Below are positions 37,522-58,885 of a DNA stretch of 64,000 nucleotides, in pieces. The notes below the pieces were generated by a model. The model had not been told where the DNA came from. It did not search any database and saw only the letters and a list, made by a program, of their open reading frames with translations. A program made the translations under genes and the position numbers. Within the stretch, counting starts at the first letter, position 1. The number at the start of each line of letters is the position of its first letter. Source of the stretch: Clostridia bacterium (GTDB lineage: Bacteria > Bacillota > Clostridia > Oscillospirales > CAG-272); contig JAFVUB010000014.1 in NCBI GenBank assembly GCA_017502915.1, positions 10,777 through 74,776 of the forward strand. The letters are read 5' to 3'.

Positions 37522-37567
37522 CGACAACAAAAACCGACCCTGCGGAAAAAGCCCGTAAGGTCGGTTT
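37522..37567 (-). terminator. Riboswitch expression-platform terminator
   Basis: Minus strand reads aaaccgacc...ggtcggttt followed by tttttgttgt. It sits between the THI-box aptamer and the thiT RBS. Confidence 0.65.
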
Positions 37568-37571
37568 CTTG

Positions 37572-37665
37572 TTGACTTCCTACGCCGGTATTATCCGTAT
37601 CAGGTTAAAGGGTTTGAAGCCATGCCTCATCTCAGCCGACGAATGTCAGCACCCCTGCGAATATT
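37572..37665 (-). promoter_or_regulatory. TPP (THI-box) riboswitch aptamer
   Basis: Minus strand reads CGCAGGGGTGCTGACATTCGTCGGCTGAGATGAGGCATGGCTTCAAACCCTTTAACCTGATACGGATAATACCGGCGTAGGAAG. It contains the conserved GGGGTGC, CTGAGA, ACCCTTTnAACCTGAT.GGATAATaCC.GCGTAGG elements. Confidence 0.88.
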
Positions 37666-37688
37666 CAGTTGATGGGTCGTATGCCATT

Positions 37689-43399: not shown

Positions 43400-43552
43400 A
43401 ATTTCTCCAAACTAATTAGATTTTATATAGGTATTATACTCCCAAACGCTCGTCTTGTCAATCGAATTTTACTTTGATAGGGAGTTTTTGCTCGTATTTA
43501 AGAAAAAAGCTAAAATATTTTCAAAAAACACGAAAAAAATACCGCAAACCCC

Positions 43553-43582
43553 TTGAAAAATATGGACGTGTTGTGGTATAAT
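43553..43582 (+). promoter_or_regulatory. Sigma-A-type promoter candidate for ppdK (TTGAAA-18-TATAAT, TGn)
   Basis: ttgaaa at 43553-43558 and tggTATAAT ending at 43582. Confidence 0.55.
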
Positions 43583-43632
43583 AACCGATGAATGTATGAA
43601 TACAAAAACAAATTCAACATAGGAGAGAGAAT

Positions 43633-46263
43633 ATGAAGAAAAAGTATGTTTATCTCTTTACCGAAGGCAACGCCAATATGCGCGAACTGCTCGGAGGTAA
43701 AGGCGCTAACCTCGCCGAAATGACCAATATCGGTCTGCCGGTTCCCCAGGGATTCACCATTTCCACTGAGGCCTGCACCCAGTATTACGAGGACGGCAAG
43801 CAGATCAACCCCGACATCATGGCCGAGATTATGGAGAACATCGACAAGATGGAAGCCATCACCGGCAAGAAGTTCGGAGATCTTGAGAACCCGCTTCTCG
43901 TTTCGGTCCGTTCCGGCGCTCGCGCTTCGATGCCCGGTATGATGGACACCATTCTTAACCTTGGTCTTAACGAGGAAGTCGTTGAGGTTATGGCTAAGAA
44001 GTCCGGAAACCCCCGTTGGGCTTACGACTGTTACAGAAGATTTATTCAGATGTACTCCGACGTCGTTATGGAAGTCGGTAAGAAGTACTTCGAAGAGCTC
44101 ATCGATAAGATGAAAGAGGAAAAGGGCGTTACCCTTGACGTTGATCTGACTGCTGATGATCTTAAGGAGCTTGCAAATCAGTTCAAGGCTGAGTACAAGT
44201 CCAAGATCGGCGCAGACTTCCCGAGCGATCCTAAGGAGCAGCTCATGGGAGCCGTTAAGGCTGTTTTCCGTTCGTGGGACAACCCCCGTGCAAATGTTTA
44301 TCGCCGTGACAACGATATTCCCTACAGCTGGGGTACTGCCGTTAACGTACAGGCTATGGCGTTCGGTAACATGGGTGACGACTGCGGAACCGGTGTTGCC
44401 TTTACCCGTGACCCCGCTACCGGCGAGAAGAAGCTCATGGGTGAGTTCCTCACCAACGCTCAGGGCGAAGACGTCGTTGCTGGCGTTCGTACCCCGATGC
44501 CCATCGCCGAGATGGCAAACAAGTTCCCTGCAGCCTTCGAGCAGTTCCAGAAGGTCTGCCAGATCCTTGAGAATCACTATCACGATATGCAGGATATGGA
44601 GTTCACTGTTGAGAACGAGAAGCTCTATATGCTCCAGACCAGAAACGGCAAGAGAACCGCTCAGGCTGCTCTCCAGATCGCCGTTGACCTCGTTGCCGAG
44701 GGTCACAAGACCAAGGCTGAGGCTGTCAGCATGATCGATCCCCGTAACCTTGACACCCTGCTTCACCCGCAGTTCGACACCAAGGCTCTGAAGGCTGCAA
44801 CTCCTATGGGTCGCGGTCTCGGCGCATCTCCCGGTGCTGCTTGCGGACAGGTCGTCTTCTCCGCTGAGGATGCCGAGGCTTGGAACAACGCCGGCAAGAA
44901 GGTTATTCTTGTCCGTCTTGAGACCTCGCCTGAGGACATCACCGGCATGAAGGCTGCTCAGGGTATCCTCACCGTTCGCGGCGGTATGACCTCTCACGCG
45001 GCTGTTGTTGCCCGCGGTATGGGTAAGTGCTGCGTTTCGGGCTGTGGCGAGATCGCCATGGACGAGGAGAACAAGAAGTTCACACTCAACGGTAAGACCT
45101 ACAACGAGGGTGATTATATCTCGATCGACGGTTCTACGGGTAACATCTACGACGGTATCATCGCTACCGTTGACGCTGAGATCTCGGGCAACTTCGGCAC
45201 TATCATGGGATGGGCTGACGAGTTCCGTAAGCTCAAGGTCAGAACCAACGCTGACACTCCCGCAGACGCCAAGAAGGCTCGCGAACTGGGCGCTGAGGGT
45301 ATCGGTCTTTGCCGTACCGAGCACATGTTCTTTGAGGCTGAGAGAATCGCAGCATTCCGCGAGATGATCTGCTCTGACACTGCTGAGGAGAGAGAGATCG
45401 CTCTTGCCAAGATCCTGCCCTACCAGCAGGGTGACTTCGAGGCTCTCTACGAGGCTCTCGAGGGTGCTCCTGTTTGCATTCGTTTCCTTGATCCCCCGCT
45501 CCACGAGTTCGTACCCACCACTGAGGAGGATATAGCTCTTCTTGCAAAGGCACAGAACAAGACCGTTGAGGAGATCAAGACCATTATCGCATCGCTCCAC
45601 GAGTTCAACCCCATGATGGGTCACCGTGGCTGCCGTCTCGCAGTTACCTACCCCGAGATCGCAAAGATGCAGACCGCTGCCGTTATCCGCGCTGCTATCA
45701 ACGTTCAGAAGAAGCACGCTGATTGGAACGTCAAGCCCGAGATCATGATCCCGCTGGTTGGCGACGTTAAGGAGCTTAAGTACGTTAAGTCGGTCGTTGT
45801 TGCAACTGCCGATGCCGAGATCGCTGCCGCAGGCGTCAAGCTCGATTACGAGGTTGGTACCATGGTTGAGATCCCGAGAGCCTGCCTCACTGCTGATGAC
45901 ATTGCTGCCAACGCAGACTTCTTCTGCTTCGGTACCAACGACCTCACTCAGATGACCTACGGCTTCTCGCGTGACGATGCCGGTAAGTTCCTCAATGCTT
46001 ACTACGATGCAAAAATCTTCGAGAACGATCCCTTCGCAAAGCTTGACCAGACCGGTGTTGGTAAGCTGATGCAGATGGCTATCACCCTTGGTAAGCCCGT
46101 AAATCCCAACCTCCACGTTGGTATCTGCGGTGAGCACGGCGGTGACCCGTCCTCTGTTGAGTTCTGCCACAAGATCGGCCTTGACTACGTCTCCTGCTCG
46201 CCCTTCAGAGTTCCGATTGCAAGACTTGCAGCGGCTCAGGCAGCTATTGCAGAGAGCAAGTAA
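43633..46263 (+). CDS. ppdK: Pyruvate, phosphate dikinase
   Basis: 876 aa (GGKGANLAEM, phospho-His region GGMTSHAAVVARGMG, C-terminal PEP/pyruvate domain ...GICGEHGGDP). Confidence 0.95.
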   Translation: MKKKYVYLFTEGNANMRELLGGKGANLAEMTNIGLPVPQGFTISTEACTQYYEDGKQINPDIMAEIMENIDKMEAITGKKFGDLENPLLVSVRSGARASMPGMMDTILNLGLNEEVVEVMAKKSGNPRWAYDCYRRFIQMYSDVVMEVGKKYFEELIDKMKEEKGVTLDVDLTADDLKELANQFKAEYKSKIGADFPSDPKEQLMGAVKAVFRSWDNPRANVYRRDNDIPYSWGTAVNVQAMAFGNMGDDCGTGVAFTRDPATGEKKLMGEFLTNAQGEDVVAGVRTPMPIAEMANKFPAAFEQFQKVCQILENHYHDMQDMEFTVENEKLYMLQTRNGKRTAQAALQIAVDLVAEGHKTKAEAVSMIDPRNLDTLLHPQFDTKALKAATPMGRGLGASPGAACGQVVFSAEDAEAWNNAGKKVILVRLETSPEDITGMKAAQGILTVRGGMTSHAAVVARGMGKCCVSGCGEIAMDEENKKFTLNGKTYNEGDYISIDGSTGNIYDGIIATVDAEISGNFGTIMGWADEFRKLKVRTNADTPADAKKARELGAEGIGLCRTEHMFFEAERIAAFREMICSDTAEEREIALAKILPYQQGDFEALYEALEGAPVCIRFLDPPLHEFVPTTEEDIALLAKAQNKTVEEIKTIIASLHEFNPMMGHRGCRLAVTYPEIAKMQTAAVIRAAINVQKKHADWNVKPEIMIPLVGDVKELKYVKSVVVATADAEIAAAGVKLDYEVGTMVEIPRACLTADDIAANADFFCFGTNDLTQMTYGFSRDDAGKFLNAYYDAKIFENDPFAKLDQTGVGKLMQMAITLGKPVNPNLHVGICGEHGGDPSSVEFCHKIGLDYVSCSPFRVPIARLAAAQAAIAESK

Positions 46264-48370: not shown

Positions 48371-49576
48371 TTAGCTTTTCGACTCTTTATCGAGAAGGTG
48401 CTTATAGGTATCGTAATCCGAAACTATCTCGATCTCTTCGATCAGCTTTTTAAGGGTCAGTTCCTTTGTGATATGAAGCTTGAGATAGTCGTTTCCGTAT
48501 TCCTTGATCATAGCGTCCACCGAGGCAAATCCGCCGTCGGCGGCAAGCTTTGCAAGCTCTGCTTGATATTCTTCCTCTGTTTCGGGAATGCAACCGAGCT
48601 TTTTAGCCGCGGAGACAAGCAAGACATCCTCCAGCGCCATAAGCTTTGCTTCGTCCTTCATAAGATCATCGGAAAGACCCATCTGCGAGATATATTGCTC
48701 ATACGAGGTTATTCCGTAGTAGAGTTGGAAAAAAGACTTATTCTTGTTGTAAGAGTCCTCGTAGTAGTATTTCATATCATAGTAGTAGTAATTTACCTGG
48801 TCTTCAGGGATCAAAACTACTTCAGACACATTTTTTAGCTCAACTATGATCTTTGAGTTTAGCTGCTTTTCGTAATTCTTTAGATTATTGAGTATCCTAT
48901 CCTCTCGGTAAGCTTCTTTAAGCTCGGCGTAGGAGTTATACTCGTCGTCTGTCAACTTCTTTATGTTTTCGTCGGTGGGGTCGAAACCGTAAATGCCGTT
49001 GACCTTGATCTCAAAAACGGCTTCCTTGCCGGCAAGATCAGCAGCACCGTAGTTTTTAGGGAAAGTTACGGTCGTGCTGACGGTGGTTCCGGGCATGATG
49101 CCGTAAAGGTCGGCGTCAAAGCCGTCGATATATCCGGTTTTGTCACTTAGCGTTATTTTCTGGTTTTCTGCAGTTCCTCCCTTGAATGCAACGTCATCTA
49201 TTTTTCCAACGTAGTTTATGTCAAGGGTATCGCCCTTTGCGGTTGCACGGTCGGTGACAAGAGTATATAGCTTCTTATCTATTGCAGCAGACAGCATTTC
49301 GGCTTCGAGCGCGGACGTGATCTCTTCGTCGCTGACGTCAACACTTATTTCAATCTTTATACCGGTATGATCACCAAGGGTCACATACTGGCCAAGCTGA
49401 GCGGAAATAAGGTTCATTATGGGGTGCAGAACGCGATCCTTGGTAGGGTCGGTTGTGCCGGAGGACGGAGATGTGGTGGTGCCATCTTCGATCGGATCAA
49501 GCGGTATTCTTTGGCAAGCTGTAAAAAAAGTTGCAAAGCAGACGATCATTGCGATCGCGGCAAGTATTTTTTTCAT
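48371..49576 (-). CDS. Trigger-factor-like lipoprotein with FKBP-type PPIase domain
   Basis: Lipobox FFTAC. FKBP-like block is GDTLDINYVGKIDDVAFKGGTAENQ...DGFDADLYGIMPG...AGKEAVFEIKVNGIY. Confidence 0.65.
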   Translation of the reverse strand: MKKILAAIAMIVCFATFFTACQRIPLDPIEDGTTTSPSSGTTDPTKDRVLHPIMNLISAQLGQYVTLGDHTGIKIEISVDVSDEEITSALEAEMLSAAIDKKLYTLVTDRATAKGDTLDINYVGKIDDVAFKGGTAENQKITLSDKTGYIDGFDADLYGIMPGTTVSTTVTFPKNYGAADLAGKEAVFEIKVNGIYGFDPTDENIKKLTDDEYNSYAELKEAYREDRILNNLKNYEKQLNSKIIVELKNVSEVVLIPEDQVNYYYYDMKYYYEDSYNKNKSFFQLYYGITSYEQYISQMGLSDDLMKDEAKLMALEDVLLVSAAKKLGCIPETEEEYQAELAKLAADGGFASVDAMIKEYGNDYLKLHITKELTLKKLIEEIEIVSDYDTYKHLLDKESKS

Positions 49577-49631
49577 TTTTGGCTCCTGATTTTATTAAAT
49601 CTGACGTTGAACATCAATAATAACTTATTAT

Positions 49632-49660
49632 ATTATACCATATATTGCGCTATCTTGCAA
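49632..49660 (-). promoter_or_regulatory. Sigma-A-type promoter candidate (TTGCAA-17-TATAAT, TGn) for the lipoprotein/J-domain operon
   Basis: Minus strand reads cTTGCAAgatagcgcaatatatggTATAATat. Confidence 0.6.
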
Positions 49661-49707
49661 GGCAAAGAAAAACATTTCATTAATAAAACACATAAACGTC
49701 AAATAAT

Positions 49708-49736
49708 TTGACAAACGAACTATATTGTGATATAAT
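49708..49736 (+). promoter_or_regulatory. Perfect consensus sigma-A promoter (TTGACA-17-TATAAT with TGn) for the three-gene TerB/ATPase/helicase operon
   Basis: ttgaca at 49708-49713, a 17-nt spacer ending tga, tataat at 49731-49736. RBS AAGGAGGGG at 49754-49762 and a TTG start at 49769. Confidence 0.7.
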
Positions 49737-49768
49737 TTATATTTACAGAACACAAGGAGGGGAAAGGC

Positions 49769-51373
49769 TTGGATAACGAAAATTACAAGAAAAAAGATGA
49801 TTTTTGGGCAATAGAAAAGCTTGTTCCCCGCAGGGAGAAGCCTAAGTTTGTTCGTCAGACCACCGACACGTCTGCCGTTGAATTTGAGCTTTCGGCAGGA
49901 AACGAAAAGAAGGACGTCGAACAACTTTCGCTGAGCTTTGATAAAGCTACGTCACAGCAGTATGAGGTCAAAAGACCGCAAGAAGAGCCGGACGATGAAT
50001 ATTCGCCTGCCTGCCCGCTAATCGAGAAGGTTTGCATCTATCGTTGGAAAAACAATTACAATTATTATGAGGAGTTTCGGCGAGACGCAAGGAGGTTTTA
50101 CCGAGCAAGCATCGAGTCTGCCCTTCCCGTCCCCTATTTTTCATACGTTCCGCAGTACGTTCAGCTTTCGAGAGATCAACTGAAATGGTACGTTTACTGG
50201 CGAGGATGCGTTAGAAGAGGAAGCTATCCCGCAACCGATTACAGCTATATTTTGCTGTTGATAACCGAAATAATCAATCTTGGTGATGAAGTTGATACCC
50301 TTGAAGGTCAGCGCATTCTTTGTGAGCTTCACCGAAACTATCGCGATAGCTATCCGCGGTTGAACAGTTATCTCAGCGATTGGATATGTGATTATTCTTT
50401 GATACATCACCTCCCCCCGCCGAGAGATATTGACCAAAGCCTGACCGAGCACTGCAGCTTGCGCGAGTTTTACGTGTTCTTTGAGGGGGACAATGCCGCG
50501 GATAACTATGCAAGCCTTCTGATAAAGTATTGCTCAAGTTATGACTATAAAAAGAGCAAATTTGCTGTGGAAGATAATCGCAAGGTTTATGACCGACATG
50601 TTTCGGGGGCACTTGCATATACGATTGAGCGTTGTTCCGAGTCGGGAAGCATACTTTCAAGAGCGGGACTTGAAAGTAATATGATAACCAGGGATGCTTA
50701 TAGTGGCGCGCTTTGCGCGTCGGAGATGAAACGGAAATTAAAGATACACTTTCTCTCGTTTTCACGTTCTCACGAACTACGCTTTTTGATTGCAGATATA
50801 ATAAAATATTCAGAAAATAAGATAAGGGCGTATCTTGGGATCAAGTCTCGTTTAAGCGTTTTCGGCATACCAAGTGTCATAACGCAGACCCTTGATGAAT
50901 ATTTTTCTGAGCAGTTACCGGTTATAAAGCGTGCTCCGTTTGAGGCGGAGGCTGCGCTTGAGGAGTATGACCGGCTTTACGAGCAACCTAAGACAGAGCT
51001 TTCTTTTGAAAATGCTGCCGATATCGAGCAACGATCTTGGAGTACTACTCAAATGCTTGTTGAAGCATTTGAGGAAGAGATAGCGAACGAACCAGCCGAA
51101 CAGCCGACGGTTGCAAGTATCAACAGTGAAGCAGATGGTCAAAACGATCTTCGCAGTGCGCTTGGAGATAGTTATGAGTTCGTTTTGCTTGCCTTGTCCG
51201 AGGATTTTGCGGGACAAGCACGCCTTGCAAAGCGCACGGGTGTTATGACTGATGCTATTGCCGACAAGATAAACGATATTGCCGTTGAGCTTTTGGGAGA
51301 TATAATTTTAGAGGATAGCAACGGCGGTTACACGATAATTGAAAATTATAAGGGGTTATTTAATGATGAATGA
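49769..51373 (+). CDS. sngA: TerB-N + TerB-C domain protein (Shango SngA-like)
   Basis: 534 aa. The TTG start is the only start codon near the strong RBS. TerB-N signature is LPVPYFSYVPQYVQLSRDQLKWYVYWRGCVRRGSYPATDYSYILLLITEIINLG (aa ~119-172). The TerB-C-like C-terminus is ...RTGVMTDAIADKINDIAVELLGDIILEDSNGGYTII. Confidence 0.75.
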   Translation: MDNENYKKKDDFWAIEKLVPRREKPKFVRQTTDTSAVEFELSAGNEKKDVEQLSLSFDKATSQQYEVKRPQEEPDDEYSPACPLIEKVCIYRWKNNYNYYEEFRRDARRFYRASIESALPVPYFSYVPQYVQLSRDQLKWYVYWRGCVRRGSYPATDYSYILLLITEIINLGDEVDTLEGQRILCELHRNYRDSYPRLNSYLSDWICDYSLIHHLPPPRDIDQSLTEHCSLREFYVFFEGDNAADNYASLLIKYCSSYDYKKSKFAVEDNRKVYDRHVSGALAYTIERCSESGSILSRAGLESNMITRDAYSGALCASEMKRKLKIHFLSFSRSHELRFLIADIIKYSENKIRAYLGIKSRLSVFGIPSVITQTLDEYFSEQLPVIKRAPFEAEAALEEYDRLYEQPKTELSFENAADIEQRSWSTTQMLVEAFEEEIANEPAEQPTVASINSEADGQNDLRSALGDSYEFVLLALSEDFAGQARLAKRTGVMTDAIADKINDIAVELLGDIILEDSNGGYTIIENYKGLFNDE

Positions 51374-52727
51374 GGAAAATATAAAGAAAGTTCCGAAAAG
51401 ATTGCTCACCTCGCTTTTGGCGTCGGTGTCAGCAGGAGTTGTTCCACGCGCGGGAGCACCGTACATTGCGATAGGCAGGCAGGATGAGATATCAGCTCTG
51501 CTTTCCGACCTTGAACTGGTTAACGACGGCGGTGGAACTATGCGCTTTCTTATCGGTCGTTACGGAAGCGGTAAAAGCTTTTTGATGCAGCTCATGCGCG
51601 GATATGCGCTTGAGCGCGGTTTCATTACCGCAGACGCCGACCTCTCTCCCGAGCGCCGTCTCTATGGCACGGGAGGATCGGGCGTTGCCACCTACCGTGA
51701 GCTAATGAAAAACCTCGCTTCTAAATCAGCACCTGAGGGCGGCGCGCTTCCCAAAATAATTGCGCGCTGGATATCCGAGCTTCAATCGAATATTGTTGAG
51801 TCGGGAGTGTCCTCTGATAGCGACAAGTTTGCTCATGCACTGAATTCGAAGGTTCTTTCAGAGCTTCGCGAGATAGAATTCTTGGTTGGCGGCTTTGATT
51901 TTGCGAAGGTCGTGTCGGAATATTACCTGGCGTATACGACGGACGACGATGCGAAAAAGAGCGCCTGCTTGCGTTGGCTTCGCGGCGAATTCGCAACTAA
52001 GACCGAGGCAAGACGTGAGCTTGGATTTAACATCTCAGTGATCATCGATGACGAAAACTGGTATGATTTTCTCAAGCTTTGGGCAGCTCTCGTACGCCGC
52101 ATGGGATATCGGGGCTTAGTTGTATTCATTGACGAATGTGTTAACCTTTATAAAATAACTCACCGCGTCAGCCGTGAGAACAATTACGAAAAGATACTGG
52201 CTATGTTCAACGATACCCTTCAGGGTCGCGCTCCCGGACTTGACATAATACTTGGAGGAACTCCTCAGTTTCTTGAGGACCCGCGTCGAGGGCTATTTGG
52301 TTATGAAGCGCTGCGCTCAAGGCTTTGCGACAGTAGATTTGCCACAGATGGATTTAAGAATCTTATAGGTCCTGTTATCAGGCTGCGCCGTCTTTCGGAT
52401 GACGAGCTGTTTGCGCTGATCGTTCGAGTTACTAATCTTCACGGGCAGAACTATTCTTGGACGCCGCGCATCACTCGTGAGGAGATGGTTGATTTCCTGA
52501 AGATATGCATATCTCGTGCCGGAGCTGATGCGATGATAACTCCCCGTGAAATGCTTCGCGACTATATGACGGTCCTAAACATTCTTATGCAGAACGAAGC
52601 CGTCAGCTTTTCCGATATTGCGGGAACTGTCGTTACCCTCAAAAAGGATGACGACGAAAAAGAGCCGATATTGAGCACGCCTCCCCGCCCTTCGGCAAAA
52701 TTCGACCCTAACGACATTGATATCTAA
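51363..52727 (+). CDS. sngB: DUF2791-family P-loop ATPase (BrxD-like; Shango SngB-like)
   Basis: ATGATG at 51363 follows an AAGGGG RBS and overlaps the upstream gene by ~11 nt. Walker A is IGRYGSGKSF and Walker B is LVVFIDECVNL. Confidence 0.75.
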   Translation: MMNEENIKKVPKRLLTSLLASVSAGVVPRAGAPYIAIGRQDEISALLSDLELVNDGGGTMRFLIGRYGSGKSFLMQLMRGYALERGFITADADLSPERRLYGTGGSGVATYRELMKNLASKSAPEGGALPKIIARWISELQSNIVESGVSSDSDKFAHALNSKVLSELREIEFLVGGFDFAKVVSEYYLAYTTDDDAKKSACLRWLRGEFATKTEARRELGFNISVIIDDENWYDFLKLWAALVRRMGYRGLVVFIDECVNLYKITHRVSRENNYEKILAMFNDTLQGRAPGLDIILGGTPQFLEDPRRGLFGYEALRSRLCDSRFATDGFKNLIGPVIRLRRLSDDELFALIVRVTNLHGQNYSWTPRITREEMVDFLKICISRAGADAMITPREMLRDYMTVLNILMQNEAVSFSDIAGTVVTLKKDDDEKEPILSTPPRPSAKFDPNDIDI

Positions 52728-52744
52728 AAAGAAAGGAGAACGGT

Positions 52745-54982
52745 ATGACCGAGGCAGATCGCGTATTTTTGCGCTTTCCCGATTTTATTCGAGAATATAT
52801 CTATAATCACTCTTGGGAATCCTTGAGAGAGGTTCAGATTGCGGCGGCAAAAACAATTTTTGAAAGCGACCACGATCTCCTTCTTACTTCTTCTACCGCC
52901 AGCGGTAAAACAGAGGCAGCGTTCTTCCCTGTTCTTGCTGAGCTTTGCCGAGATATGCCGCAAAGTGTTGGAGTTCTGTATATCGCACCGCTGAAATCGC
53001 TTATAAACGATCAGTTTTTGAGAATAGAGGATCTTCTTGACGAAACCGGCATATCCGTCACGCATTGGCACGGTGACGTTGCTCAGTCGCATAAGCGCAA
53101 GCTGCTGGAAAATCCTCGAGGCATCCTGCAGATAACCCCTGAGTCGCTTGAAAGTATGCTGGTAAACCGATCGAACGACGTTGTTCGCATCTTTTCGGAT
53201 CTGCGCTTCGTTATAATCGACGAGATACACACCTTGACCGGATCGGACCGCGGAAACCAGATAATATGTCAGCTATTGAGGATAGAGCGTCTTATTGGGC
53301 GTTCTCCGCGCCGTATCGGTCTTTCCGCAACCGTTGGAGATCCCGAAAAGGCTGCTGAATGGCTTGCCGGCGGACGAAATGTTATCGTTGATATACCCAA
53401 GCTGACCGAGCCGAAGCTTCGCTGGAGACTCGGACTTGAGCATTTCTATATTCAGAATCTCAATCCTATACAAGATGACACAGCAAAGGTCAAATTCAAG
53501 CCTCCAAAGTCTCCGGCGGCAGAGATCGATGCGGGATTTGAATATATGTACGACTGTGTCAGCGACAAAAAGGCTCTCGTTTTCTCAAATTCAAGAGAGG
53601 AGACCGAATATATAACCGCAACTCTTCGTCAAATTGCAAAAAATCGCGGAGATCGCGATGTGTTTTTGATACATCACGGAAATCTTTCGGCATCGCTTCG
53701 TGAGGAAGCCGAAGCAAAGATGAAGGACAAGGATATTCGTGCCGTAACCTGCGCCACCGTTACGATGGAGCTGGGTATTGATATTGGCAGACTTGAGCGA
53801 ATAGGTCATATGGGAGCTCCCTGCTCGGTTACAAGCTTTCTGCAGCGATTGGGACGCTCGGGACGCCGTGGTTCTCCTCCCGAGATGATGATGGTATTTC
53901 GCGAGGAAGAGCCGTTGCCAAACGCACCGCTTCCCCAGCTTATTCCGTGGGAGTTGCTTCGCGCCATAGCTATTGTGCAGCTCTATATTGAAGAGAGGTT
54001 TATAGAGCCACCCTCTCGCAAAAAGCTGCCGTTTAGCCTTTTGTTCCATCAGACCTTAAGCACTCTGGCATCGTCGGGAGAGCTTACGTCCCGTCGTCTT
54101 TCCGACCGAGTTCTTTCTCTGCCCCCCTTCTTTGAGGTCAGTAGAGAGGATTATAGGGCTCTTATTCTTTCAATGCTTGAAAACGATTTTCTGCAGTTGA
54201 CCGAAGAAAAAGGTCTTATCGTTGGCCTTGCCGGCGAGCGCTTGTTGGCAAGCTTCAAATTCTATGCCGTTTTCAAGGACACCGAGGATTTTACCGTCCG
54301 TTGTGGATCGGATGAGATCGGTACTATAACGACCCCTCCGCCGATCGGAGACCGATTTGCTCTTGCGGGACGGGTATGGGAGGTAGAAGAACTTGACGTC
54401 AAGCGACGCTTGATATACGTGAAAGCTGTTGAGGGCAAGATGGAGGTCTCGTGGCCTGGAGATTTCGGCGAAATAAACACCAAGATCCTTCAGAGAATGA
54501 GAAGAGTTCTTGAGGAGGATACGGTGTATCCGTATCTCAAGCAAAATGCGCAGACTCGACTTGAAGCCGCGCGCGCAGTAGCTCGCAACAGCGGTATGCT
54601 TGAGCATTCGCTTATCTGCCTTGGTGGATATACCTGGTGTCTCTTCCCCTGGCTTGGAACGCGGTCGTTCCGAACCCTTCGCAAGTTGATATCCCATAAT
54701 GCCGGTCGCTTTAGAATAAGTAACATTGAGTTTGACGGTTGTTGCTATATGACCTTCAAGATGGAGGGTGCCAATGACTATGAGCTTATTTCCGAGTTGC
54801 TTGATACAGTTAACCGATATGGGATTGATACAGAAGAGCTTGTTGCAAAGGGGGAGGTCCCGTTGTTTGAAAAATACGACACCTTCATCCCGGACTCTCT
54901 TCTGCGCCGTCAGTACGCTGCAGACCGACTGCGAACCGATGAGCTTGAGACCCGATTGAACGAAATATTTTCGGAATACTAA
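52745..54982 (+). CDS. sngC: Lhr-like DEAD/DEAH-box (SF2) helicase (BrxHI-like; Shango SngC-like)
   Basis: 745 aa with an AAAGGAGAA RBS. Motif I is SSTASGKTEAAF, Ia is YIAPLKSL, II is VIIDEIH, III is LSATVG, VI is QRLGRSGRR. The ~350-aa C-terminal half is unassigned. Confidence 0.8.
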   Translation: MTEADRVFLRFPDFIREYIYNHSWESLREVQIAAAKTIFESDHDLLLTSSTASGKTEAAFFPVLAELCRDMPQSVGVLYIAPLKSLINDQFLRIEDLLDETGISVTHWHGDVAQSHKRKLLENPRGILQITPESLESMLVNRSNDVVRIFSDLRFVIIDEIHTLTGSDRGNQIICQLLRIERLIGRSPRRIGLSATVGDPEKAAEWLAGGRNVIVDIPKLTEPKLRWRLGLEHFYIQNLNPIQDDTAKVKFKPPKSPAAEIDAGFEYMYDCVSDKKALVFSNSREETEYITATLRQIAKNRGDRDVFLIHHGNLSASLREEAEAKMKDKDIRAVTCATVTMELGIDIGRLERIGHMGAPCSVTSFLQRLGRSGRRGSPPEMMMVFREEEPLPNAPLPQLIPWELLRAIAIVQLYIEERFIEPPSRKKLPFSLLFHQTLSTLASSGELTSRRLSDRVLSLPPFFEVSREDYRALILSMLENDFLQLTEEKGLIVGLAGERLLASFKFYAVFKDTEDFTVRCGSDEIGTITTPPPIGDRFALAGRVWEVEELDVKRRLIYVKAVEGKMEVSWPGDFGEINTKILQRMRRVLEEDTVYPYLKQNAQTRLEAARAVARNSGMLEHSLICLGGYTWCLFPWLGTRSFRTLRKLISHNAGRFRISNIEFDGCCYMTFKMEGANDYELISELLDTVNRYGIDTEELVAKGEVPLFEKYDTFIPDSLLRRQYAADRLRTDELETRLNEIFSEY

Positions 54983-55026
54983 AAAAACAATGCTGTGTGA
55001 CTTAGGTCACACAGCATTGTTTTTTA
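54981..55026. terminator. Strong bidirectional intrinsic terminator
   Basis: aaaaaaa-caatgctgtgtgac-ttag-gtcacacagcattg-tttttt, a perfect 14-bp stem. It sits between the helicase stop and the convergent DUF3899-like gene. Confidence 0.85.
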
Positions 55027-55416
55027 TAGTTTGATCCATATAAGGAATATCGCGGCGATTGCTATAAATGCAAGTCCCACCAAGAGAAGATAAGCACAAC
55101 TATGCTTGTTTTCGTCTTTCGCCTTTTTATATTCGTAATAGTCCTTATACTTTCTGTCTTTGATATTCCATTTGCGCGCGGTAAAGACCATAGAAATGCC
55201 GTAACCGAGCATACGAAACATTCCGCCATCGCTGACAAAAACCAATCCACCGGCACAAACAAGGCATATTCCGCTGATGAAAAATGCATCGTTCAGAATC
55301 ACCAAGATCCTGTTTATATCGGTTTCTTCAAAAATATTTCTTGTCAGCATAACCACGCACGCAATGAAAAGTCCAACAGAAATGGAAATTACGTAGCGTT
55401 TTGTGTTGGGTTTCAT
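55024..55416 (-). CDS. DUF3899-like small membrane protein
   Basis: 130 aa with 3-4 TM segments and a central basic stretch (RKWNIKDRKYKDYYEYKKAKDE). ATGA overlap with the oppF-like stop. Confidence 0.6.
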   Translation of the reverse strand: MKPNTKRYVISISVGLFIACVVMLTRNIFEETDINRILVILNDAFFISGICLVCAGGLVFVSDGGMFRMLGYGISMVFTARKWNIKDRKYKDYYEYKKAKDENKHSCAYLLLVGLAFIAIAAIFLIWIKL

Positions 55417-56672
55417 TCTCTCACCTTATCGTTCTCTGCGATCTCCGCCTTGTATTTTTCAAACTCGGCATCGTTGCAAAGAATAAAGTGTCCCGGCAAA
55501 ATCTCTCTCATTGTGGGCTTGTCTACGGTATAGTCATGCTCCGCAAGTGGGTTATAGATAATTCTCTTTCTGTCCTTTTCGTAATCGGGGTCAGGAAGAG
55601 GGATTGCCGAAAGAAGCGACTTTGTATAGGGGTGGAGCGGATGTGCAAACAGCTCATCTGAGGTTGCAAGCTCTACCATCTTTCCGTAGTACATAACGCC
55701 GATTCTGTCTGAAAAGTATTTTACGACAGAAAGGTCATGTGCAATGAAGAGAATTGTCAGTCCGAGCTGCTTACGCAGATCATTAAGAAGGTTAATTACC
55801 TGCGCCTGGATCGAAACGTCAAGAGCTGAGATTGGCTCGTCTGCAATGATAAGGTCAGGATTAAGGATAATAGCTCTTGCTATACCGATACGCTGACGCT
55901 GACCGCCCGAGAACTCGTGGGGATATCTACCGGCATGCTCTTTAACAAGTCCGACAAGATCAAGTACTCTGTAAACCTGCTCGTCAATGTATTTTTCATC
56001 CTTGATCTTTCTGATGAGAAGTCCCTCTGCGATGATCTCACGTACCGTCATACGGGGATTAAGGCTTGCAATAGGATCTTGAAAGATCATTTGCATGCTA
56101 TTCATTATGCGATCTTTTTTCGCAAGACTAATCTTTTCCTTTTTCTCCTTCAAAAGAGCCTTTATAGCGTTTTCGTCGGTTTGTGCTGCAATACGTTCGG
56201 CGTATTCCGCTTCTATTTTCTTAACCTGCTCTTCGGCATAAAGCTTGTTGCAGTTTTTATGATCGTAACGTGCCGACTTGATCTTTTCGTTCAGCTCTCT
56301 TACTGTATCGAGATATTCCTTCTCAAGGCGAGAAAGCTCTTCTCGCGATTTTTCATCCCCGACCGCCTTCAACTCTGCAGCTTTGGCGTCGAACTCTTTT
56401 TTTGCCTCTTTTATGGCGTTTTTGTAAGCGCGGGTTCCGGCGCAAATTCTCTGCCCCTTGAAATAAACACTGCCCGAGGTAATATCATAAAGTCTTATTA
56501 CCGAGCGTCCCGTAGTGGTTTTTCCGCATCCGGATTCACCAACAAGACCGAAAACCTCACCTTTTTTAATGTCAAAGCTGACATTATCGACTGCGCGAAG
56601 CTCATTACCGGGACCTATTTTGAAATACTGGCAAAGGTTTTCTACTTTCAACAAAGTTTCTTTGTTTTCCAT
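55413..56672 (-). CDS. Oligopeptide/dipeptide-type ABC transporter ATP-binding protein (OppF-like) with ~100-aa coiled-coil insertion
   Basis: Walker A is GESGCGKTTTG, Q-loop MIFQDPIASLNP, signature FSGGQRQR, Walker B IIADEPISALD. Walker A and the Q-loop are ~146 aa apart. Confidence 0.85.
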   Translation of the reverse strand: MENKETLLKVENLCQYFKIGPGNELRAVDNVSFDIKKGEVFGLVGESGCGKTTTGRSVIRLYDITSGSVYFKGQRICAGTRAYKNAIKEAKKEFDAKAAELKAVGDEKSREELSRLEKEYLDTVRELNEKIKSARYDHKNCNKLYAEEQVKKIEAEYAERIAAQTDENAIKALLKEKKEKISLAKKDRIMNSMQMIFQDPIASLNPRMTVREIIAEGLLIRKIKDEKYIDEQVYRVLDLVGLVKEHAGRYPHEFSGGQRQRIGIARAIILNPDLIIADEPISALDVSIQAQVINLLNDLRKQLGLTILFIAHDLSVVKYFSDRIGVMYYGKMVELATSDELFAHPLHPYTKSLLSAIPLPDPDYEKDRKRIIYNPLAEHDYTVDKPTMREILPGHFILCNDAEFEKYKAEIAENDKVRE

Positions 56673-58885
56673 TAGCTTTTCCTCCTTGCCGATTTCATTC
56701 TGTTTATTCTGTCTGTAACTGCCTTGGGCGGGTCAATTTTCGGCGCATCAGGATGCAGCAGCCATGTTGCGGCATAGTGGGTATCCGAAATTTTGAACAT
56801 CGGGGGCTGCAGCTCGAAATCAATTTCCATAGCGTACTTGTTTCGCTCTGCAAACGCATCTCCCTTGGGAGGATAGATCATGTTCGGAGGAGTACCCGGT
56901 ATGGATTCCAGCTTTTCGTTTGTGTCCAGATCGGGCATAGACGAAAGGAGAGCCCATGTGTACGGGTGAGCCGGCGAATAGAATACATCATCTGCGGTTC
57001 CGATCTCAACGATCTTTCCTGCATACATAACTGCAACTCTGTCTGCCATGTTTGCAACGACGCCGAGGTCATGAGTTATGAATATTACGGAAAGCTGACG
57101 CTCTGCCTTAACCTTATTGATAAGCTCAAGGATCTGCGACTGGATCGTAACGTCAAGTGCCGTTGTAGGCTCGTCACAAACAAGGATATCGGGCGCGGCA
57201 GAAAGAGCGATCGCGATAACGATTCTCTGTCTCATACCGCCCGAGAACTCAAAGGGATACTGCGAGAATCTCTTTACGGGGTCAGGGATTCCGACCTCCT
57301 TAAGAAGTTTGATCGCGCGCATCTTTGCCATGCTCTTTGTGACACGGTAAGCAACACCCGAAGCCTTCTCTTTCAAATAGTCGATTACGTCAACGGTTGC
57401 GGCACCAATATCAAAATCAGTCTGAGCGATTCTCTTCTCATAGCTGGCGCAAAGAGTGTCGAATATTCTAATAATAGACGCCTTGAGCAGATCAAGATCC
57501 ACAATATTCTTTTCAGAGATCTCATATGACGGCTCCTTGCCCTTTGCGATCAAAGCATCACGCTTAGCCGTTTCCTTAGAATAACGTACGTTCTCCTTCT
57601 CGTTGGCGACAACGGCGTTGAAATACTGATCAACTGCAGATTTCAAGCTTGAGGTGAAGGTATAGGACAGATTATCCTTGACCACGTCGAACGGATCTAT
57701 GGTTTTTTCAACGGCTTTGATGAGAATTGCAGAAGCGTTTGCAACGTCCTTTTTGTTAAGGCTATCGACACTGAACACCGCAGAATGCTCTTTGACGAGC
57801 GCGATCACCTGACGGCGTGCTTCCATTGCCTTCTCTCTTGAATAAGCAATACCCTTTTTCGCTCTCTCGATAAAGTTCAACATGAAGTGCTCGTCGAGAT
57901 ATTTGCGAAGGAATGCGTTAAGCTCTTCGATGGGCATTTCGGGGAGAGGCTCGTTTGCAAAGGTAAGATAATAACCGAGTGCAAAGAAATTCGGCTTTGT
58001 CTTTGCTACAGCTCTTGTAAGTATTTCCTTGACCTCGGAAAGCTTGGCATATGCAGCTTCAAAATCTGCGCCCTTGTTCGTGGGTTCTCTGTTAACGAGT
58101 ATCTTTGCTGCATTTCCAACGTTCTCACCAACAGAGAGCCTAATGTCATTTTTAATGCCATCAAGAAGGCTCTTTAATCTTTCTGCATCCTCTTTTACCA
58201 CGTATTGATCATACGTAAGAGAGGAAAGATGTACTATCTCGGAAATATTTGCGATCATTCCCTTATACGACTTCTTCTCAATACGGAAAAGTACGTCGTC
58301 AAGGTCTTCGAGCGCATAGTTTGCCGCAGTCGTGGCACGGTTGTACAGATTTTCGTGCTCAAGATGCTTGTGCTCAAACGTATCAAAGTCAAGGCAAAGC
58401 TGCTTATTGATACGGCACTCCTCTTCATTCTGACCATAAGCCTCATCCATACAGCTTCTGAGGCTCTCAAGAGTGAAGTTAAAATCCTTTCTGGACTGCT
58501 TACGCTTCAGCTTACCCTTTATTATCATAGCCTCGGTAAGCTGCTTACCTACGCGCATGATGGGGTTCAAGCTGGACATGGGGTCCTGGAAGATCATTGC
58601 GATCTTATCACCGCGGATGTTGTGGAACTCCTCCTCGGTGATCTTCATCAGATCTTGTCCGTCGTAAATTATCTCTCCGCCTTCCTTTATGGCGTTACCG
58701 GCAAGTATGCCCATTACGGCGCGGTTGGTTACCGATTTACCCGATCCGGATTCACCAACTATCGCAAGAGTTTCACCCTTATAGAGATCAAAGGAAATAT
58801 CACGAACCGCCTGAACGTTTCCGTTATCGGTGCGGAAGGATATCTTCAAATTTTTAACTGAAAGCTTTATTTCTCTTTTTGACAT
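56672..58885 (-). CDS. Oligopeptide/dipeptide-type ABC transporter ATP-binding protein (OppD-like) with ~390-aa insertion
   Basis: 737 aa. Walker A is GESGSGKSVT, Q-loop MIFQDPMSSLNP at aa ~98-109, signature FSGGMRQR only at aa 547, Walker B ILVCDEPTTALD. Confidence 0.85.
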   Translation of the reverse strand: MSKREIKLSVKNLKISFRTDNGNVQAVRDISFDLYKGETLAIVGESGSGKSVTNRAVMGILAGNAIKEGGEIIYDGQDLMKITEEEFHNIRGDKIAMIFQDPMSSLNPIMRVGKQLTEAMIIKGKLKRKQSRKDFNFTLESLRSCMDEAYGQNEEECRINKQLCLDFDTFEHKHLEHENLYNRATTAANYALEDLDDVLFRIEKKSYKGMIANISEIVHLSSLTYDQYVVKEDAERLKSLLDGIKNDIRLSVGENVGNAAKILVNREPTNKGADFEAAYAKLSEVKEILTRAVAKTKPNFFALGYYLTFANEPLPEMPIEELNAFLRKYLDEHFMLNFIERAKKGIAYSREKAMEARRQVIALVKEHSAVFSVDSLNKKDVANASAILIKAVEKTIDPFDVVKDNLSYTFTSSLKSAVDQYFNAVVANEKENVRYSKETAKRDALIAKGKEPSYEISEKNIVDLDLLKASIIRIFDTLCASYEKRIAQTDFDIGAATVDVIDYLKEKASGVAYRVTKSMAKMRAIKLLKEVGIPDPVKRFSQYPFEFSGGMRQRIVIAIALSAAPDILVCDEPTTALDVTIQSQILELINKVKAERQLSVIFITHDLGVVANMADRVAVMYAGKIVEIGTADDVFYSPAHPYTWALLSSMPDLDTNEKLESIPGTPPNMIYPPKGDAFAERNKYAMEIDFELQPPMFKISDTHYAATWLLHPDAPKIDPPKAVTDRINRMKSARRKS

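Follow-up and report, generated by a model that had tools for sequence, protein, structure and literature searches.

A predicted Shango (SngABC) anti-phage operon resident in the chromosome of a gut Clostridia bacterium

The locus considered here is a cassette of three genes in a 64,000-nt stretch of DNA, hereafter the window, from a Clostridia bacterium (contig JAFVUB010000014.1, positions 10,777 to 74,776 of the forward strand). On the + strand it comprises sngA (49769-51373), which encodes a 534-residue protein from a TTG start and was delineated from the open reading frame (ORF) list together with the Pfam and PADLOC matches; sngB (51363-52727), which encodes a 454-residue AAA+ ATPase of the BrxC_BrxD family, formerly DUF2791; and sngC (52745-54982), which encodes a 745-residue helicase of superfamily 2 (SF2) resembling Lhr and BrxHI. 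We assign the cassette to Shango, an anti-phage system composed of a TerB-type protein, an ATPase and a helicase, whose protection is typically 10- to 100-fold in E. coli and P. aeruginosa (Millman 2022; Johnson 2022).

Upstream of sngA lies a sigma-70-type promoter (49708-49736, + strand), a TTGACA-17-TATAAT element with a TG extension, which is the sole perfect site in the 8 kb scanned (48500-56500). The ribosome-binding site of sngA, AAGGAGGGG, was read in the sequence at 49754-49762 (+), 6 nt 5' of the TTG start. The ORF list opens the middle gene at a TTG at 51339, giving 462 aa; judging from the sequence, the start is likely the ATG at 51363, which has AAGGGG just 5' of it and gives 454 aa. 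On contigs carrying the identical cassette, the length of sngB varies with the gene caller as 454, 453 or 462 aa. The TGA stop of sngA (51371-51373) places the two genes in overlap by 11 nt, or by 8 nt if sngB opens instead at the neighbouring ATG (51366). Between the TAA stop of sngB (52725-52727) and the start of sngC at 52745 there is a 17-nt gap, which holds the ribosome-binding site AAAGGAGAA.

The 3' end of the cassette is marked by a bidirectional intrinsic terminator (54982-55025), a perfect inverted repeat (54982-55001 and 55006-55025) with 20-nt arms, in which a 14-bp mixed-sequence core is placed between A and T runs around a 4-nt loop. Folding of the repeat yields -32.9 kcal/mol (z = -9.7 versus shuffles). 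It was overlooked by a simple terminator scan and found as an inverted repeat, and it is common to sngABC and the convergent DUF3899 gene (55024-55416, minus strand). An initial annotation, made from the letters and a list of ORFs, had described this unit in the same terms. The ORF list agrees with its three co-directional genes of 534, 454 and 745 aa, its perfect promoter scores 12/12, its 11-nt overlap and 17-nt gap are read in the sequence, its perfect 14-bp hairpin is the core inside the longer perfect arms, and all of the motifs that it quoted were located in the respective genes. From these signals sngABC is almost certainly a single transcription unit that runs from the consensus promoter to the strong terminator, a judgement that we make jointly with that on its identity as Shango.

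From its N-terminus, SngA consists of a short conserved motif, a disordered linker, TerB_N, a conserved middle region, an acidic linker and TerB_C. The TerB_N domain (50066-50410, +; aa 100-214) matches Pfam PF13208 at 3.9e-12, with 46.8 bits against a cut-off of 25, and is an all-helical bundle with a predicted local distance difference test (pLDDT) score of 90-97, in which the loop FSYVPQ is invariant across the alignment columns. The TerB_C region (50981-51349, +; aa 405-527) matches PF15615 at 4e-9, with 37.3 bits against 26.3. The motifs FSYVPQYVQ and GDIILED were both found in the protein. The structural model, with a mean pLDDT of 78.6, places two beta-hairpins and a long helix in the middle part, and the middle region (aa 215-405) carries the invariant charged residues E233, K264, R308, E336, R338, D343, K346, E349 and R353. 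The last ~75 residues are modelled as three helices and a beta-hairpin with a winged-helix-like shape. The sole Foldseek signal for SngA is a weak resemblance to the DNA-binding domains of LysR proteins (probability about 0.5), and these winged-helix matches most likely correspond to the C-terminal end of the model. A search of solved structures with the SngA profile gave no match.

The TerB domain proper (PF05099) was absent from SngA and from 29 members of its clade in Pfam searches at E values up to 1, and no membrane-spanning stretch was found in SngA, SngB or SngC. The N-terminal motif reads DDFWxIxxLxPxR in the clade (here DDFWAIEKLVP, aa 10-20, 49796-49828) and is followed by a disordered linker of ~45 residues. 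It is kept across SngA of gut Clostridia and missing from SngA of the Clostridium estertheticum and E. coli plasmids described below, the E. coli protein having a hydrophobic helix in its place, and it may serve as a docking peptide. A role as a membrane helix is unsupported, as the hydrophobic moment of only 0.4-0.5 is not strongly amphipathic.

SngB is a full-length match to the Pfam family BrxC_BrxD (PF10923, 523.6 bits, 4.6e-157), with the Walker A motif GRYGSGKS (51555-51578) and the Walker B motif VVFIDEC (52119-52139) both intact. A sequence search of solved structures with SngB gave no match. Its best PADLOC profile is SngB (PDLC03959; 6e-164, 544 bits), aligned over aa 8-429 to positions 4-423 of the 439 in the profile, whereas the BrxD profile reaches only 2e-50 and 170 bits. 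The NCBIfam BrxD equivalog (NF033438) likewise gives 170 bits, under its cut-off of 350.

SngC carries the DEAD and Helicase_C domains of Pfam, and its motifs I (TASGKTEA, 52895-52918), II (DEIH, 53219-53230), III (SAT) and VI (QRLGRSGRR, 53843-53869) are intact. The best PADLOC profile is SngC (PDLC03960; 1.9e-237, 789 bits; aa 7-735 on positions 5-714 of 720), compared with 1.2e-126 and 422 bits for BrxHI. By sequence, the nearest solved structures are Lhr (5v9x) and MrfA/YprA (6znp), at about 1e-30 and over the motor domains only (aa 23-385); a Foldseek search with the model returned the same two proteins, Lhr of M. smegmatis at 6.8e-17 and MrfA/YprA of B. subtilis at 3.4e-11. Both share with SngC a core of two RecA domains and a winged helix, followed by further C-terminal domains. 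After the helicase core, the model shows a winged helix, a five-strand beta-barrel and an alpha+beta C-terminal domain. In the published description of BrxHI, likewise an SF2 helicase, a winged helix and a beta-barrel are joined by a C-terminal domain that is Lhr-like (PMC12839542), and this agreement in the order of secondary structure supports an Lhr/BrxHI-like helicase fold for SngC.

SngC differs from Lhr and MrfA in that the sequence similarity is confined to the motor, the operon partners are different, no DUF1998 domain was detected by Pfam and all NCBIfam equivalogs of repair helicases remain under their cut-offs (TIGR04121, 214.6 versus 850; NF007284, 123.7 versus 1496). The WH_Lhr profile gives 16.2 bits against a cut-off of 27, a sub-threshold match that recurs in 32 of 32 homologues. 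Since the fold resemblance to 5v9x is real and the family cut-offs are unmet, SngC is Lhr-like and not an Lhr orthologue. SngC has been grouped with BrxHI, DruE and DpdJ in a clade of immunity-linked helicases.

The PADLOC comparison, a profile scan of the three proteins, also gives SngA as the best profile for the first gene product (PDLC03958; 1.1e-44, 152 bits; aa 95-527 on positions 75-519 of 528). Because the Sng profiles are thus the top match for all three proteins and the combination is that by which the literature defines Shango, the cassette is, on the evidence of its sequence, almost certainly a complete and apparently functional Shango (SngABC) system, one of a large clade that gut Clostridia carry in their chromosomes. 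A Shango call by DefenseFinder or PADLOC is expected, as the matches and the adjacency of the genes should meet the synteny rule. The Shango-type reading had been offered by the initial annotation and is upheld by these best matches; the Pfam families that it named, TerB_N, TerB_C, BrxC_BrxD, DEAD and Helicase_C, were all found. Its view of gene 1 as TerB-N plus a TerB-C-like terminus is confirmed by scores above both cut-offs, and that of gene 2 as a P-loop ATPase of the DUF2791/BrxD type by the BrxC_BrxD match and the Walker motifs. Gene 3 had been called an SF2 Lhr-like helicase, which stands, given DEAD, Helicase_C, Lhr (5v9x) as the top Foldseek match and the sub-threshold WH_Lhr matches of the 32 homologues. 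It had also proposed that no nuclease, methylase or toxin domain is present, and none was found by the Pfam, PADLOC or NCBIfam scans; that the three genes would co-occur elsewhere, and dozens of other genomes do carry them together, in unchanged order; and that a TerB/ATPase/helicase system of this kind protects against phages, which the studies that define and validate Shango bear out (Millman 2022; Johnson 2022).

A tellurite-resistance (Ter) or TerB stress system does not fit, as the cassette lacks the TerB domain and terZABCDE-type genes nearby; no ter genes were found in its neighbourhood.

Shango of E. coli and of P. aeruginosa PA14 has the same three components in the same gene order as the cassette. 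The detailed comparison was made with a homologue on an E. coli IncF plasmid (L095; 350, 618 and 935 bits with the SngA, SngB and SngC profiles), which stood in for the PA14 and Millman sequences. The SngC of this plasmid is 31% identical to that of the cassette from end to end, and the SngB about 38%; no BLASTP similarity is detectable between the two SngA proteins (E = 0.23). The plasmid SngA has 769 aa, with an N-terminal hydrophobic helix, TerB_N, TerB and TerB_C, whereas the 534-residue SngA of the cassette has neither the TerB domain nor the helix. The same short form is encountered on the C. estertheticum plasmid pCF002-344 (NZ_CP086238.1, L094), which encodes an SngA of 533 aa with TerB_N and TerB_C only, an SngB of 443 aa that is 48% identical to the SngB of the cassette, and an SngC of 744 aa. 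Since TerB is present in the SngA of the E. coli plasmid and absent from that of C. estertheticum, the domain is variable and not defining for Shango.

The settings of these operons also differ. The cassette is located in a chromosomal housekeeping region, and neither in a defence hotspot nor on a plasmid. The copy on the IncF plasmid adjoins the Lit exclusion gene. That of C. estertheticum is plasmid-borne, with a relaxase gene upstream and, downstream, the gene for a mad3-like ABC (ATP-binding cassette) ATPase and IS110 transposase genes. The ATPase gene (L094 10596-13142), directly 3' of Shango, encodes an 848-residue UvrA-like double ABC ATPase that is a PADLOC candidate for mad3 (5.3e-68), and it may be a linked second defence gene.

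Around the cassette, one flank encodes peptidyl-tRNA hydrolase, Mfd, pyruvate phosphate dikinase, a DnaJ-domain protein, a DUF5685 protein and an FKBP/trigger-factor-like protein; the other encodes a DUF3899 protein, an Opp-type ABC transporter and EF-Ts. The upstream synteny is retained in closer relatives (L007-L009, contigs of P0003-P0007). The FKBP-DUF5685-DnaJ block is found without the cassette in L087 and in L090/L091, and L090 shares its genome with L012, a different contig, which holds the Shango of that genome. The absence of the cassette from the same block in related genomes, together with the plasmid-borne relatives beside other defence genes, implies that it is accessory.

Identical cassettes are present on 15 metagenome contigs, and the NCBI entry for gene 1 reads 'MAG: TerB N-terminal domain-containing protein [Clostridia bacterium]', where MAG denotes a metagenome-assembled genome. 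A scan with an SngA alignment over one genome per species found 204 genomes, of which the best 80 were analysed; all of these are MAGs of Clostridia, Eubacteriales or Oscillospiraceae, many of them from ruminant guts. An exhaustive profile search returned 3031 cluster representatives of the SngA family (50%-identity clusters), 843 of them at E <=1e-30, and the family is large and already well sampled. Homologues of SngB occur on 697 plasmids, mostly conjugative ones of Klebsiella and Salmonella, at about 38% identity, and none was found among 50,697 phage records. The one such plasmid that we inspected (L095) holds the full operon, so that resistance plasmids of enterobacteria may often carry operons of the Shango type. 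Shango has also been reported from rumen genomes among the systems called by DefenseFinder.

The related loci retain the A-B-C order and strand, and all three genes are near-full-length ORFs in 60 of the 80. Pairwise distances over 61 operons have medians of 0.60 for SngA, 0.275 for SngB and 0.283 for SngC, so that SngA diverges about 2.2 times as much as either partner. The distance matrices of the three proteins correlate with r of about 0.89, implying that the genes are co-inherited. The two disordered linkers do not account for all of the excess in the rate of SngA, whose folded core by itself still gives 0.56. Judging from these sequence comparisons, a fast SngA next to motor proteins under constraint is in keeping with SngA as a phage-facing sensor.

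Exceptions to the three-gene layout were also encountered. In three loci a gene for a HisJ-family PHP phosphatase runs over the end of sngB, with EutH present as well in two of them; a GDSL hydrolase gene stands between sngA and sngB in two loci; and the insert is a NAGPA lipoprotein gene in one locus and, in another, a metallophosphoesterase gene on the opposite strand. The insert-gene sites are L039 10956-12940, L054 5240-7260, L053 11000-11872, L047 4490-5287, L071 9619-10467, L012 4898-6661 and L066 8575-9510. Such insertions are not usual in a defence operon. We rejected these genes as components of Shango or as a hidden effector, as they are miscellaneous and mostly metabolic, and none is widely recurrent; no recurrent fourth gene was found among the related operons. 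In two further loci (L062 8001-9650 and L050 8001-9650), SngA is an orphan, without SngB or SngC downstream in the 8 kb and 2.3 kb available. By eye, from ORF translations, the genes 3' of it resemble a ComEC-type metallo-beta-lactamase and NagB. The orphans may be what is left of degraded systems, or the TerB_N/TerB_C protein may be used there on its own.

Several observations weigh against the reading of the cassette as a working defence system or against the mechanism proposed below. The homologues of Shango for which phage protection is demonstrated are those of E. coli and P. aeruginosa. The Sng profile scores of 152, 544 and 789 bits are lower than the 350, 618 and 935 bits of the operon on the IncF plasmid, implying that the cassette belongs to a divergent branch, still within the Shango family. 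Housekeeping neighbours are an unusual setting for a defence system. There is no compositional anomaly at the cassette, where G+C is unremarkable, and no flanking repeats, tRNA genes or integrase were found at its borders. SngB and SngC are strongly conserved, at about 72% identity across species, and metabolic genes lie within the sngABC operon of some relatives. As to the structures, Foldseek found no significant neighbour among solved structures for the full-length SngA model, and the SngC model is of low confidence (mean pLDDT 61.9), probably because its alignment was too uniform, at 73-89% identity; from this model we relied on the family-level match to Lhr and MrfA alone. Finally, there is no visible effector domain, so that any mechanism rests on analogy.

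Some of these points would also be expected of a housekeeping module for DNA repair, or for R-loops and replication conflicts, built around an Lhr/MrfA-type helicase and not primarily devoted to phage defence in gut Clostridia. Among solved structures SngC comes closest to the repair helicases MrfA/YprA and Lhr, and its best NCBIfam match, albeit under the cut-off, is the ligase-associated DEXH helicase. Such a module would agree with the housekeeping neighbourhood free of mobile-element traces, with the metabolic genes interleaved in the operon of some species and with the perfect consensus promoter, which suggests constitutive expression; in the syntenic L007-L009, moreover, SngB and SngC are 81-87% identical, compared with 38-70% for the neighbouring housekeeping genes. 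However, the repair-helicase equivalogs are far under their cut-offs (214.6 versus 850 bits), and the Sng profiles, which fit much better, describe a family shown to defend against phages. The cassette is also patchy, being missing at the same site in L087 and L090/L091 and lying on another contig in one genome, its plasmid-borne relatives adjoin other defence genes (Lit in L095, mad3-like in L094), and a repair factor would not usually evolve as fast as SngA does. We therefore regard a repair module as improbable.

The tightly linked ATPase-helicase pair also has a homologous counterpart in BrxD/BrxHI of type 2 BREX (bacteriophage exclusion; Pgl), and the cassette might accordingly be a remnant or satellite of such a system, i.e. 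its accessory pair joined to an unrelated upstream gene. The BrxD (2e-50) and BrxHI (1.2e-126) profiles do match, and Pfam itself places SngB in BrxC_BrxD. Nevertheless, the Sng profiles win for both proteins (544 versus 170 and 789 versus 422 bits) and the BrxD equivalog stays at 170 against 350 bits. The partner in the cassette is a TerB_N/TerB_C protein, linked to the pair in at least 60 genomes, and no PglZ, PglX, PglW or BrxC was found within about 10 kb on either side or among the large ORFs of the window; we consider a BREX origin very improbable indeed. Somewhat more room, although still little, is left for abortive infection, in which SngA or the complex would have an unrecognised toxic activity, triggered when the helicase senses phage DNA, that would kill the cell or arrest it. 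The parallel is Hachiman, a helicase-based system in which the helicase does the sensing for an effector distinct from it (PMC12278908). Such an activity could reside in the middle region of SngA (aa 215-405), which is rich in invariant charged residues and has no assigned fold, whereas the SngA model has no nuclease-like structural neighbour, and none of 29 SngA homologues gave an effector match in Pfam, NCBIfam or PADLOC even at E = 1. This alternative is therefore unlikely, though less so than the two before it. Taken overall, the explanation that we favour, a resident Shango system, is very probable.

How Shango would act can be put forward only tentatively, and we found no mechanistic study of it in the literature searched. 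Lhr prefers RNA:DNA hybrids. In the Lhr structure paper, as it is cited in PMC12839542, Lhr is described as a 3'-to-5' translocase on single-stranded DNA. BrxD is a stand-alone ATPase of the ORC/Cdc6 type in the AAA+ class, which may load or activate BrxHI (PMC12839542). By analogy, SngA, as a soluble and fast-evolving protein of TerB_N and TerB_C, would be the sensor of infection or an adaptor, made in step with SngB through the overlap of their frames. SngB, as an ORC/Cdc6-type AAA+ protein, would oligomerise and load or activate SngC, as proposed for BrxD and BrxHI. SngC might then track along single-stranded phage DNA or RNA:DNA intermediates of replication or recombination and dismantle them, and replication of the phage DNA would thereby be blocked without a dedicated nuclease or toxin. 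The overlap of the sngA and sngB frames, the preserved catalytic motifs and a fast SngA paired with conserved motors all suggest this sequence from sensor to loader to helicase; we infer the sensing, the complex formation, the substrate and the outcome alike, and hold the scheme as a whole to be possible rather than probable.

A role in membrane surveillance has been raised for Shango in the literature. In the present clade this idea cannot rest on a TerB domain or a membrane anchor, because its SngA has neither. A slightly more doubtful generalisation is that Shango as a family might be a nuclease-free immune system, in which SngA would sense infection and SngB would load SngC to stall phage replication intermediates, with membrane surveillance not belonging to the conserved core of the family. 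A variant of it, less likely still, has the gut-Clostridia clade domesticated for maintenance of host DNA. The probability left over falls to Shango working in a way outside all of the models listed here.

Three further features of the window were noted apart from the cassette. A thiamine pyrophosphate riboswitch at 37560-37666 (minus strand; 69.8 bits against a gathering score of 54.3) is unrelated to it. An 886-residue ORF at 43510-46170 (minus strand), antisense within the gene for pyruvate phosphate dikinase (43633-46263, +), can almost certainly be dismissed as a shadow ORF. The OppD-like ABC ATPase at 56672-58885 (minus strand) is unusually long, at 737 aa, and with its Pfam domains in the order ABC_tran, AAA_21, ABC_tran and oligo_HPY, the ATPase domain appears from the sequence to be split by a large insert.

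The cassette adds no new principle, since Shango is already named and tested, and the mechanism across the family is the remaining question. To this end the clade presents a compact, all-soluble form of a widespread and experimentally validated system, which should lend itself to biochemical and structural study. With SngA changing fast and SngB and SngC slowly, SngA is the component in which to look for recognition of the phage and for the effects of phage escape mutations. The survey also documents how common Shango is among Clostridia of gut and rumen, which bears on the ecology of gut phages.

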